NCBI GenBank assembly: GCA_949358305.1
Contig: OX442314.1
Coordinates: 8,680,001-8,744,000 of the forward strand
Direction: 5' to 3'
DNA from: Strigamia acuminata
Lineage: Eukaryota
DNA length: 64,000 nucleotides
Shown here in pieces: positions 5,336-14,415 of this stretch (position 1 is the stretch's first letter; each line of letters begins with the position of its first letter). The notes under the pieces are model-generated. The model ran no database searches. It was not told where the DNA came from and saw nothing but the letters and a program-made list of their open reading frames with translations. Position numbers and translations under genes: made by a program.

Positions 5336-6298
5336 TGTAATGAGCTCAAATTACGGTTAGGAATATTAACAATAAAACTAAACTCATTGATGCCGTGCCA
5401 GGACTTATACAAATACTTCACAAATAACTCAATTTTAACTCAAACTTCAAGTTAAACACTAAGAGAAATAATGACTCTATTATTTCTCAATAAAAGGAAG
5501 ATTTATTCAAACTTAGAATAAACACTAAATCAAATACAAGATATTATTTTGTGATAAAATGAGAAATTAAAAGACTGAGGAAATAATTTACTAAAACGAA
5601 AATAATCAAAAGCAGAGGAAAATGATAAAGAATCCAGTCGATTCGACGACTCCACTTCTCGGGAACGCCGAACGCTTGGATTCGCTTCACTCGACGCTCG
5701 GCTCGGCTTCGGCGTTTCTTCAACACGGACTCAATTCCGTCACAACTACGTTCTCCTGACTCGCTCGGGCTCAATCCCGCTCTCTTCGTCCTCTCCAGGT
5801 CGCAACGTCGTCGTCGCGGCGTCGTTGCGGCTGATTCCGCACAACAATCTCTCACACTCGCGCTCACTTCGCTTCGTCGCGAGTGAGAAATCTCAGTCCA
5901 ACAATGGCTGTTGGCCAAGAATAGAAATCCCTCCAAACAATACTTGTTTGGCAAGATGAAAATCCCACTGTCACTAACTGAAGTAACCGCAAGAAATATC
6001 TCACAAATTGCTCTGGCAATCTGCAAGAATGAGTCCAAATACTCTGGTGACTGGTTGCTCTCAAAGTAAGTTTCAAACTGAGGAGTTTTTCTGCTCCTCA
6101 CAGGAAGTGTTTCCTGCTCCAGGAGGTTGCGGGCTGGTTTCCCTGGCGACCACCCACAATTCCTCCCACCCTGCCTAACTCCCTTTATCTAGACAGGAAG
6201 TCATAAAAAATATAAAATAAAATAAAACAATCTCCAATTTAATATTTTATTTCGGGCTCATTCCCGATACTTCATCAGTGACCACTAGGGTCACTACA
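5336..6298 (-). repeat. 3' LTR (963 bp)
   Basis: Direct repeat of 13400-14415, identical by eye except for a 53-bp deletion. TG...CA ends; minus-strand AATAAA at about 5502-5507. Confidence 0.95.
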
Positions 6299-6312
6299 CC
6301 TCCCCTCTTTTT
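6299..6312 (-). promoter_or_regulatory. Polypurine tract
   Basis: Minus-strand AAAAAGAGGGGAGG abuts the 3' LTR. Confidence 0.9.
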
Positions 6313-6342
6313 AGGAAGGTTCTCCGATTCTTCCTTTACTTC

Positions 6343-9300
6343 TTATTTCTCGATTCGGAAAACTGACTCCGGAGTTGGAGCTTCGCTTTCGGAAACCGAA
6401 AATTTCGGCAGATGACGGGTTGGTCCTGAGGTGGCGCCATTGTTGACATGGAGCCAGACTTCTTCGATGAACTTGGTCCTCGGGAATACTCGGTCATAGT
6501 CGATGTCATATTTTTCGCGGGATCCAGTGGGTGGCCTCCGCACTGCTACTAATCGTTGATGCTGAATTATACGCTTTGGCTCTCTAACAGCATTCTCGAG
6601 CCATTTCAATGCCTCATGGCATAACGTCACATTGTAAATTAGCAGAGTTCGAGCGTATTCGGGGAACTTCAGACCTGGATATAGTTGTTTTATCTTCCTA
6701 AAGTCTTGGTTGGGATTCTTCTTCGTTTCTTTCGCAGCCGCTGAACTCTTGGACGACACCGTCTTTTGCGAACTTCCACTAGCTCTATTTAAGGGCTCAT
6801 TCCCTTCAACATCAAACATTTCCGTATCTGTGGTCAATTTCAACTCGACATCGGATTCTGGAGCTATTGCTTTTTTGGTTGGCTGGTGGCTTGGCGTGGC
6901 AGTCATAAAGACTGTGGGCGCTGCCCCTTCTGCTGTTGGTGGGTCAGCTACTTGCTGCGCACACGTCCCAAATTTTCGTTGCAGTTGCAAGCTCTGTCTT
7001 CTCAGAATCCATTCACCCCGTAATCTTAGCATGCACTGCCCCGATGTTTCTCCCGTTTTAAAAACTTCTCGTTCCAATTGGGCTCGAATGACCGGTGGGT
7101 CCCCCAATACTGTTTTCCAGCTATCGAGCAGTTCGGGCGGGATTCCCATTGCTGACGTCCACAGGAAACTCGTGGCAATCAATGAAGCTTCGACGGCTTG
7201 AAAAACTCCCGGAAATAAAAGTCTAATTAGCGCCACTGACATTTGCACTTCGAACCAAGCTAGCCATTCTTTGGTTCGCAGCTCGGTGGGTTGGGCGACG
7301 AAGGCTTGAGCGCATCTCCGTCGTTCATTTAGTGATTCTGCTAATTGGGCTTGCTGGTACTCGTCCATCGTTGGGGTCAGAAGTCCTTGGTTACATAACG
7401 GAAATTTCAAATACATCGTCCACAGCTGTCGATAGTATTTATCGAAATCTTCAGCTAATTTGACTGACGGGTCTATTGTGTACATCACAGTGGCTACTGA
7501 TGGAATTGGCAGTGATAAGTCCGTTTGGGGAATTGGTTCCGTAATTGGTTGCAAGTGAGGGTGAGGCACTCCCAAGGCGGCACTCGGCGTAGCTTTTGGT
7601 TGTACCTTCCTTGGATCTCGCATCCTCGGGCGCAGTATTCGCGATGGTCCTTTTTTTCGCGCTGGTTCCCTTGCCCTTTTCTCCCATGCCTGGGCTAATG
7701 CCTCGTCAAGAGTCGGCAACTCTCGGCAGCTGGAAATCTCTGGTGATGACACTCGCGGCGTTGGCGTTGGTGGGCACGTGGTTGGAGTCCAGGTAATAGG
7801 AGTGTGTGTACTCCGTGGTGGTGTCTTTGGCGCCTGGTACTGTCTTGGAGGGGTGGCCGGCGGTGGTTTCTGCACTTCCTGCTGCCTTGGCGGGGTAGTA
7901 GGTGGTGTTCTTGGCCCTCTTTTGCTGGTTTCACCTCCTTGTCGTTTTTCAGTGTCGTGTGTGACTGTTGCTGTTGGCTCCCGTTCCTCCAAAATGTGGA
8001 CGGTTGTTTCAGCCAATTGCTGTTCTTCCACTGAATCGGGTGTCGGTGAGCGTTGACACTCATCCATTACCACGTATTGATCTAACTCCATCTCGTGTGC
8101 CGTCAAATACTCATCCGACGAACTTCTACGAATTCGCACCTGTAGTGTCTCATTTTTATCCGCTGAAATTGTCACCTTCCTTGCTGGGCGCATTTCTGAA
8201 TAGCGGTGTGACGACCGTGGGCGTTTCTTTGCCCGCTCAATTCGATTTCCTTCGGCTGACGGACGCTTTTCTGTTGCTCGGTGGTGTCTAGGTACGTATT
8301 CTCGATCTGCCGTTTCGTGTCGCCTCGAATTCTTTTTCGGACTCATTTCCGAGCTTCGTTGATGCCTCTTTACTTCCCTCTCTGAATCTTTGTCTGTTCG
8401 ACTTGATCTTTTCTCCATTTGAGGTTGACGAGAGAAATATTGTTGTCTCGGACTCTTACTCCTTCGTCGGGGACTTTCTTTTCTATCTCGACTTTGACAT
8501 CTTCCCGTTTGGTGTTTTTCTAGTGTCGAATTTCGGTTCTCTTTTTGACCTTTTCTCGGACTTATTTCCGCACTTCTGTATTCTTTTCGCCTAGATCGGA
8601 ATTCCCTGGTATAATATTTTGGGCTGATTCTTCGAGGAGGAGTTGTCCTTTTGGGTCTCTCACTCCTGGAGTAACGGAGGGCTCCTCTTGATCTGGCTTC
8701 TCTTCCTCGCCGTTTGGTTTCCTCTTCTTCCGTTCTGACACATTTCAGAAACTCCACTTCCTCGTGTAATTCCTTCACCGTTTCTTCTGCCGCCTGTTCT
8801 AATGCTGCCTCCCACTCGTCCTGCTCCTGCCGCTGTTGTTTGGCGTAGACGAGCGGTCCAAAATCCTCGGCTTGCGGCTCACCTTCTAAATTGAGCGGTG
8901 TGATGTTTTGGCCAATGAGTCCCGTCATATGGAGTTGGTGCATCTTGTACTGACTCTTTATGAAGTATGGCGGCTCTTTATCTAACTCCGGGGAAGGCAA
9001 TAAGGCCTGAGCTTCGAGGTAAGCTGTTTTCTCCTCCATATATTTAGCCGCTACTTCTGGTGCTCCGGCTTTCAGCTTTGCCATCACCTCTTCCACGAAT
9101 TTAAATTTGTTTGTCGCCGGGTTCTTGTATATTTTGAGATCGGCTGCTTCCTCCTCTTCTATCGGATATTCATCCCCTATCATCTGGTTCCAAATTGGGC
9201 CATGCGTGTCCTCTGTAATTGGGATCTGTCTCAAAACTTCGTGGAAACATGTTTTGAATCCTTTGAATAGTCGTTTTGTCGTTCCCCAAAATCTTTGGAT

Positions 9301-13276: not shown

Positions 13277-13386
13277 CTTGTTTTAGTCACAGGAAAGGAG
13301 AAAGAAACAGAATAATCTATCACAAAATAACTTTTGTCACACAAAATTGGTCCCTCAACTGAATATAAGTTGTTAAGGTTCAAATA

Positions 13387-13397
13387 ACGGGCCCCCA
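13387..13397 (-). promoter_or_regulatory. Primer binding site, probably tRNA-Pro
   Basis: Minus strand ...TTACA CT TGGGGGCCCGT, compared with the canonical tRNA-Pro PBS start TGGGGGCTCGT (10/11 match). Confidence 0.7.
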
Positions 13398-13399
13398 AG

Positions 13400-14415
13400 T
13401 GTAATGAGCTCAAATTACGGTTAGGAATATTAACAATAAAACTAAACTCATTGATGCCGTGCCAGGACTTATACAAATACTTCACAAATAACTCAATTTT
13501 AACTCAAACTTCAAGTTAAACACTAAGAGAAATAATGACTCTATTATTTCTCAATAAAAGGAAGATTTATTCAAACTTAGAATAAACACTAAATCAAATA
13601 CAAGATATTATTTTGTGATAAAATGAGAAATTAAAAGACTGAGGAAATAATTTACTAAAACGAAAATAATCAAAAGCAGAGGAAAATGATAAAGAATCCA
13701 GTCGATTCGACGACTCCACTTCTCGGGAACGCCGAACGCTTGGATTCGCTTCACTCGACGCTCGGCTCGGCTTCGGCGTTTCTTCAACACGGACTCAATT
13801 CCGTCACAACTACGTTCTCCTGACTCGCTCGGGCTCAATCCCGCTCTCTTCGTCCTCTCCAGGTCGCAACGTCGTCGTCGCGGCGTCGTTGCGGCTGATT
13901 CCGCACAACAATCTCTCACACTCGCGCTCACTTCGCTTCGTCGCGAGTGAGAAATCTCAGTCCAACAATGGCTGTTGGCCAAGAATAGAAATCCCTCCAA
14001 ACAATACTTGTTTGGCAAGATGAAAATCCCACTGTCACTAACTGAAGTAACCGCAAGAAATATCTCACAAATTGCTCTGGCAATCTGCAAGAATGAGTCC
14101 AAATACTCTGGCAATCTTTCTCTAAATCAGCTTGTAGAATGGTGTTTTCTCAGGAAGATTTTGGTGACTGGTTGCTCTCAAAGTAAGTTTCAAACTGAGG
14201 AGTTTTTCTGCTCCTCACAGGAAGTGTTTCCTGCTCCAGGAGGTTGCGGGCTGGTTTCCCTGGCGACCACCCACAATTCCTCCCACCCTGCCTAACTCCC
14301 TTTATCTAGACAGGAAGTCATAAAAAATATAAAATAAAATAAAACAATCTCCAATTTAATATTTTATTTCGGGCTCATTCCCGATACTTCATCAGTGACC
14401 ACTAGGGTCACTACA
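13400..14415 (-). repeat. 5' LTR (1016 bp)
   Basis: Direct repeat of 5336-6298 with an extra 53 bp at about 14112-14164. Confidence 0.95.

Follow-up and report, generated by a model that had tools for sequence, protein, structure and literature searches.

A young, polymorphic LTR retrotransposon copy of Strigamia acuminata with two long intact reading frames and no recognizable reverse transcriptase

As a rule, non-autonomous long terminal repeat (LTR) elements are regarded as non-coding passengers. In the 64,000-nt stretch of the Strigamia acuminata genome analyzed here (assembly GCA_949358305.1, contig OX442314.1, positions 8,680,001 to 8,744,000; below, the window, with all coordinates counted from its first letter), positions 5336-14415 are an LTR retrotransposon copy of 9,080 bp on the minus strand, whose interior is nearly filled by two open reading frames (ORFs) encoding no recognizable reverse transcriptase (RT). 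The question raised by this locus is how such a copy could be inserted, and what its proteins may do. Our analysis has shown an LTR copy without RT, RNase H and integrase (IN) core that was inserted recently, likely being copied in trans by the enzymes of a complete relative.

The copy has all parts that structurally define an LTR retrotransposon, namely direct LTRs, TG..CA ends and a short target duplication on both sides. Alignment of the LTRs with each other places the 3' LTR (in the element sense; 963 bp, TG..CA) at 5336-6298 and the 5' LTR (1016 bp) at 13400-14415, both on the minus strand; in the element sense, both start with TGTAGTG and end with CATTACA. Not a single mismatch is seen in 963 aligned bases, and the sole difference is one 53-bp indel, seen as 53 extra bases at 14109-14161 of the 5' LTR. 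The target-site duplication AGTT, read in the sequence and consistent with the empty-site joint described below, occupies 5332-5335 on the left and 14416-14419 on the right. The polypurine tract AAAAAGAGGGGAGG (6299-6312, minus strand) is clear and abuts the 3' LTR. A primer-binding-site-like (PBS-like) sequence TGGGGGCCCGTT, starting with TGG, is found by reading at 13386-13397 (minus strand), two bases past the 5' LTR; a matching tRNA is lacking for it (the window has no tRNA gene, as neither the tRNA scan nor the Rfam scan of the whole window gave a match). A preliminary description of this locus, made from the letters alone, had listed intact LTRs, polypurine tract, AGTT duplication and PBS, and LTRs identical apart from one indel; all of these can be read in the sequence, the PBS as a PBS-like site only.

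The 53-bp difference between the LTRs is bordered by short repeats (..CCA.. / ..GCCAG..) and could have arisen by slippage or by a template switch, at the time of reverse transcription or later. In its GC-rich middle, each LTR contains a stop-free frame without a Pfam match (5544-6188, minus strand, 214 codons; 13608-14126, minus strand, 172 codons), which is probably a by-product of base composition.

The interior of 7.1 kb is almost wholly coding, 6.2 kb of it lying within two intact open frames. ORF1 (10169-13276, minus strand, read from 13276 to 10169) encodes 1035 amino acids (aa), and ORF2 (6343-9441, minus strand, read from 9441 to 6343) encodes 1032 aa; they are separated by a non-coding spacer of 727 nt (9442-10168, minus strand). 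According to an arithmetic estimate, the chance of 1035 sense codons in random sequence is about e^-50. The two proteins show no similarity to each other, and no other copies of the element were found within the window by blastn or tblastn.

The enzymes of replication were not found in this coding sequence. Pfam searches with both ORFs and their sub-regions gave no RT, RNase H, IN core, Retrotrans_gag or zinc knuckle, and the 20 interior ORFs in other frames gave nothing retroelement-like, with PPR_long as the single match (E 0.068). Regular-expression scans of ORF1 and ORF2 found no CCHC, HHCC or YxDD motif. The profile search of all frames returned only a protease and an IN SH3 domain. Hence, most of what the preliminary description had said about coding content holds: two intact ORFs of about 1030 aa, no RT, RNase H, IN core or the corresponding motifs, and a protease kept in a fusion in ORF1. 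Its statement that the capsid is also lacking was too strong: none is recognized by Pfam, but the single-sequence structure models are not good enough to rule out a capsid-like fold.

The order of regions in ORF1 is a disordered N-terminus, a long coiled coil, the protease, an IN C-terminal remnant, and an acidic, Ser/Gln-rich tail whose end is basic. The retroviral-type aspartic protease occupies aa 555-642 (11351-11614, minus strand), with the DSG motif at aa 561, the only one found by the motif scan of ORF1. The Pfam match to gag-asp_proteas (E 6.7e-6, 27.1 bits) covers positions 9-92 of the 92-position profile, and RVP reaches 20.8 bits at a cut-off of 20.7. The putative IN C-terminal SH3 domain of the GPY/F type is at aa 757-818 (10823-11008, minus strand), with the only GPY motif of ORF1 at aa 783; here the match to Pfam SH3_Tf2-1 is weak (E 0.0035, 17.9 bits, cut-off 30) and near full length (profile positions 2-63 of 64). 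Upstream of the protease, a single-sequence structure model predicts a coiled coil that is long and alpha-helical, resembling a Gag N-terminus, at aa 111-364 (12185-12946, minus strand). It consists of helices at aa 111-142, 148-179, 186-236 and 239-364, mostly with a predicted local distance difference test (pLDDT) score of 70-88, and a further helix is modeled at aa 493-546. In this AlphaFold model of ORF1 the mean pLDDT is 47, the coiled coil is the only confident part, and the protease is unfolded. No relatives of ORF1 were found at E <= 0.001 by a word-indexed protein search with aa 480-1035 (among proteins of near lengths), the whole protein (longer lengths) and aa 1-560 (near lengths), none were confirmed in viral contigs, and a PDB sequence search with both ORFs gave nothing meaningful at E <= 1.

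Taken together, ORF1 probably represents what is left of a gag-pol, with the protease fused in frame to the IN C-terminal region and the junction falling within aa 655-700 (approximately 11176-11312). The retroviral-type aspartic protease, a feature of the Ty3/gypsy group, is present in ORF1. Since RT is absent, the defining marker of this group (RT grouping and the order protease-RT-RNase H-IN) is missing, and the element is best described as a putative derivative of Ty3/gypsy and not a classifiable member, the assignment following from a protease placed before an IN C-terminal SH3/GPY domain.

The age of the insertion was assessed on contigs, not reads, of three public sequencing runs of the same organism (X1, X2 and X3), aligned to positions 4000-16000 of the window (12 kb). 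Of the sampled words, 0.48, 0.45 and 0.34 occur in the respective runs, so no run has this exact copy in full. Both X1 and X2 contain an empty-site contig, in which 5331 is followed immediately by 14416, four letters being shared at the joint. The X1 record, 451 letters long, is fully explained by 381 + 70 letters, being a clean and precise empty site. The insertion is polymorphic and young: it must be recent because the LTRs are identical in all 963 aligned bases and other individuals carry the empty site. The same two observations agree with the word "young" in the preliminary description.

These data also bear on whether the copy arrived in its present form. One may suppose that a complete autonomous element was inserted here and later lost its RT-RNase H-IN core at this locus, in which case only this copy would have the layout and the family would be an ordinary one. 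None of the listed contigs is shown to bridge the junction between protease and IN remnant, and an indel did arise at this locus (53 bp, in one of the LTRs), both of which agree with such a one-off deletion. Moreover, just upstream of the protease other copies have a different structure: in X2 and X3 there are contigs that match this copy on one side of ORF1 aa 551-554 and run into unlike sequence on the other, with loose ends at 11617 and 11625. Relatives with a different structure at this point fit further deletion or recombination. On the other hand, zero divergence between the LTRs and a segregating empty site leave little time for one or several multi-kilobase deletions that would have kept a frame of 1035 codons open, and this is the reason to think that the RT-less form itself has transposed. 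A weak additional argument is that the best-supported loose ends listed for 10900-11500 (18 of 724) include none at the proposed junction. We consider a one-off deletion quite unlikely, and prefer the transposition of an already RT-less copy. A joint 11221->11429 is also present in the contigs, and the letters between its two sides are not known; it may represent a second RT-less copy, the evidence being ambiguous.

Other copies of the internal sequence are abundant in the runs. The number of contigs aligned to the element and its flanks is 1893 in X1, 1020 in X2 and 718 in X3; by identity, those of X1 are divided into 680 (99% and above), 578 (95-99%), 434 (90-95%) and 201 (below 90%), and contigs of the element span 85-100% identity. 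Among the diverged contigs, two from ORF2 are gap-free (626 nt with 66 differences and 413 nt with 32 differences), and one from the N-terminus of ORF1 has 130 differences and 2 gaps in 892 nt. The depth of near-identical ORF2 contigs is, in X1 as in X2, about 7.5-fold that of the empty-site contig, which is a rough figure of depth and not of copy number. The interior of the element exists in many copies, including diverged ones. To this extent the earlier suggestion of a satellite family stands, the RT-less layout being established for the present copy.

The listed variation among these copies comprises 40 of the 1077 differences, 12 of the 115 small indels and 15 of the 28 joints. Among the 40 listed differences, 27 fall within the ORFs (6207 nt) and seven within the spacer (727 nt). 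Synonymous changes account for 19 of the 27 ORF differences (12 of 16 in ORF2, seven of 11 in ORF1), the share expected without constraint being about 28% (binomial p 6e-6; crude omega about 0.16). The 12 small indels in the list all lie outside the ORFs, eight in the flank and four in the spacer, leader or LTR, including two single-base indels of the spacer. Larger length variants follow the same trend, as all four listed inside the ORFs (51, 207, 108 and 183 bases) are multiples of three, and the two listed in the LTR (106 and 209) are not. Such variation looks like the result of purifying selection on both ORFs, and, judging from these comparisons, coding constraint, present or past, acts on the sequences across the element family. 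With respect to the comparison of dN/dS across copies proposed earlier, the synonymous share among the listed differences looks like purifying selection, but the comparison may include autonomous relatives.

Long intact frames and an excess of synonymous changes would also be expected of host genes, and both ORFs might be domesticated genes that merely happen to lie between old LTRs. This is extremely improbable and close to refuted by the precise empty site in other individuals, the multi-copy nature of the sequence, the identical LTRs and the target duplication.

ORF2 has no recognizable family. The protein is basic (isoelectric point 9.7), with a basic helical N-terminal part (aa 1-253), a low-complexity middle (approximately aa 240-640) that is first Arg/Ser/Lys-rich and then Pro/Thr-rich, and a C-terminal part with helices at aa 660-830 and 914-1000. 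Between aa 240 and 450 there are 47 Arg and 28 Ser residues, with 16 RS/SR dipeptides in the Arg/Ser/Lys-rich stretch, and the motif TPPR occurs four times across the whole protein. Pfam assigns no family to ORF2, phmmer gave no matches among 1.84 billion representative proteins, the ESM Atlas gave no usable match to the whole protein or to aa 645-1032, and no relatives were confirmed in metagenome contigs. The AlphaFold single-sequence model has a mean pLDDT of 39 and no confident fold.

A protein without retroelement or other relatives could derive from host or foreign sequence picked up through a template switch, possibly together with the N-terminal part of ORF1, making the element a chimera. 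Exchange between families by template switching has been described (PMC11302176), and the contigs that match this copy on only one side of ORF1 aa 551-554 are compatible with recombination. Still, a host homolog has not been found either, among the representative proteins or in metagenome contigs, and in the diverged copies ORF2 has no gaps and its changes are mostly synonymous, as is characteristic of a maintained element gene, whatever its origin. We regard a chimera as unlikely; moreover, it concerns the origin of the element and is compatible with mobilization in trans.

The following scheme would account for an RT-less copy mobilized in trans. ORF1 would descend from a Ty3/gypsy-type gag-pol in which the whole stretch separating the protease from the IN C-terminal domain was removed in frame, and its capsid and nucleocapsid part has probably been lost too. 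The element would be transcribed from its own LTR, with reverse transcription and integration carried out by the enzymes of a complete relative. Both ORFs would be kept by selection if the copies making these proteins are copied more often. The ORF1 fusion may join helper particles via its coiled coil and favor its own RNA in cis, by analogy with the GAG-POL fusion of the mouse IAP 1Δ1 element (see below). The weakest step concerns ORF2, which occupies the position of a "third ORF"; from its strongly basic composition and its Arg/Ser-rich middle it may be predicted to be a nuclear accessory protein handling RNA, possibly a functional analog of CERV of the Cer1 element, which acts in export of genomic RNA, or of retroviral Rev.

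A bolder version of this scheme is a self-maintaining satellite lineage that has dropped the replication enzymes and the recognizable capsid, while 6.2 kb of coding sequence is maintained by selection, with an ORF1 fusion that infiltrates helper particles and with ORF2 as a new class of accessory factor serving export or packaging of its own RNA, thus out-competing the helper. We offer it tentatively, as it is rather doubtful in this complete form. If the family-level picture is true, the element would be a useful system for finding out which proteins a trans-mobilized element must still make; if it is false, this is simply one deleted copy.

Several observations weigh against mobilization in trans of an RT-less lineage with selected proteins. 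Only for this copy is the RT-less layout proven, as no listed contig is shown to span the protease/IN junction, and no autonomous partner or helper element was seen in the material examined. The synonymous excess could stem from autonomous relatives that share these regions, and thus it is not proof of selection within the RT-less lineage. The match to the IN SH3 domain falls under the Pfam cut-off and is weak. The weakest point is the role of ORF2, which is deduced solely from composition and position, for a protein that has neither a relative nor a confident fold.

The surroundings of the insertion have features of their own. The element is flanked by a 180-bp direct repeat (95-99% identity), with one copy at 4560-4736, about 600 bp to the left, and another at 14874-15055, about 460 bp to the right. 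Further left, at 880-2094 vs 2917-4208, lies a tandem duplication whose period is about 2.1 kb. In the runs, contig depth is raised over the flanks as well. Since the flanks are themselves repeated and have raised depth, the element sits in repeat-rich DNA.

The window as a whole is eukaryotic, with an AT-rich background. A homolog of the splicing factor AAR2 is encoded by two adjacent exons at 20096-20989 (plus strand; Pfam AAR2 C-terminal region, E 9.5e-43). Its intron of about 68 nt starts with GTAAG and ends with AACAG; the Caenorhabditis intron acceptor is TTTTCAG, and the window intron is without it. An inverted repeat at 23103-23681 / 25237-25811, whose arms of about 575 bp are 87-95% complementary and enclose approximately 1.6 kb, resembles a foldback element or a DNA transposon with long terminal inverted repeats, and a third partial copy is found at 28029-28621. 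Short inverted and direct repeats of 100-250 bp (92-95%), resembling miniature inverted-repeat transposable elements or foldback elements, are clustered at 41167-41937 and 43042-43287. Tandem arrays are located at 27409-27846, 32251-33056, 33436-33899, 48032-48340 and 55386-55963, with periods of 15, 31, 41, 103 and 20 bp, respectively. Finally, a GC-rich island (53%) in the AT-rich region, at 29923-31326 (minus strand), contains an open frame of 467 codons, whose Ser/Pro/Lys/Thr-rich product belongs to no Pfam family.

The preliminary description had considered the architecture of the element to be unlike that of any described family. In this general form the claim is not supported, as coding non-autonomous LTR elements having fusion ORFs or unknown domains have been described, among them mouse IAP 1Δ1 (PMC7411935), wheat RLG_Quinta (PMC11302176) and sugar beet families (PMC13570524).

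IAP 1Δ1, a subfamily of partly deleted endogenous retroviruses, has an internal deletion of gag-pol that leaves one open fusion ORF, and is the non-autonomous, most active and insertionally polymorphic form of IAP; its fusion protein aids retrotransposition in cis, with GAG and POL arriving in trans (PMC7411935). The Strigamia element resembles it in being non-autonomous, in having an open, putative fusion ORF and in the polymorphism of its insertion, though here the deletion is deduced and not seen against a parent. Unlike IAP 1Δ1, it keeps the protease and the putative IN C-terminal domain, and has a second, orphan ORF of 1032 aa.

Among plant elements, RLG_Quinta of wheat encodes GAG and a "DUF1", with no RT or INT, and is a target of cross-mobilization by RLG_Cereba; such elements are thought to supply protein while borrowing enzymes, and partnership of non-autonomous and autonomous elements is recognized by a shared PBS and shared LTR termini (PMC11302176). 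Sugar beet families retain GAG/PROT, or GAG/PROT with other POL remnants (PMC13570524). As in the case of Quinta, TR-GAG and semi-autonomous plant elements, the cis signals of the Strigamia element are intact, RT and IN are absent, and an intact ORF carries an uncharacterized domain. In contrast to Quinta and TR-GAG, it has no recognizable GAG capsid or zinc knuckle, a coiled coil being all that is seen of this part, and it has two ORFs of about 1030 aa.

Extra proteins are also found in autonomous elements. Cer1 of Caenorhabditis elegans encodes, in addition, the fast-evolving CERV, which has no relatives outside nematodes, is nuclear, and is needed for export of genomic RNA, and its GAG has a coiled coil (PMC10309623). 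The likeness to Cer1, namely a long predicted coiled coil at the beginning of ORF1 and an extra orphan protein, is a functional analogy only. Cer1 differs in being autonomous, with CA-like and NC domains and full pol; CERV, compared here by its description, differs from ORF2 in being 517 aa long, encoded by a five-exon spliced mRNA and having H and M domains and a GTPase-like G domain. LTR retrotransposons of bdelloid rotifers are retrovirus-like, with varied non-env third ORFs downstream of pol (PMC5408684); they differ in being autonomous, and their named ORF3s have recognizable enzymatic or env-like domains, while ORF2 has none.

A full-text literature search found no description of a protease/IN-tail fusion combined with a large orphan ORF, although this does not prove that such a layout is unpublished. 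With a young polymorphic copy that is nearly all open frame and shows signs of purifying selection, the Strigamia element provides a case outside plants and mammals, in which a retroelement parasite appears to depend on its own proteins, and its ORF2 is a large orphan protein with a testable role. Compared with the systems listed above, what is particular to it is that a protease and an IN tail are kept without a recognizable capsid or zinc knuckle, next to a large orphan ORF2 and at a very high coding density.

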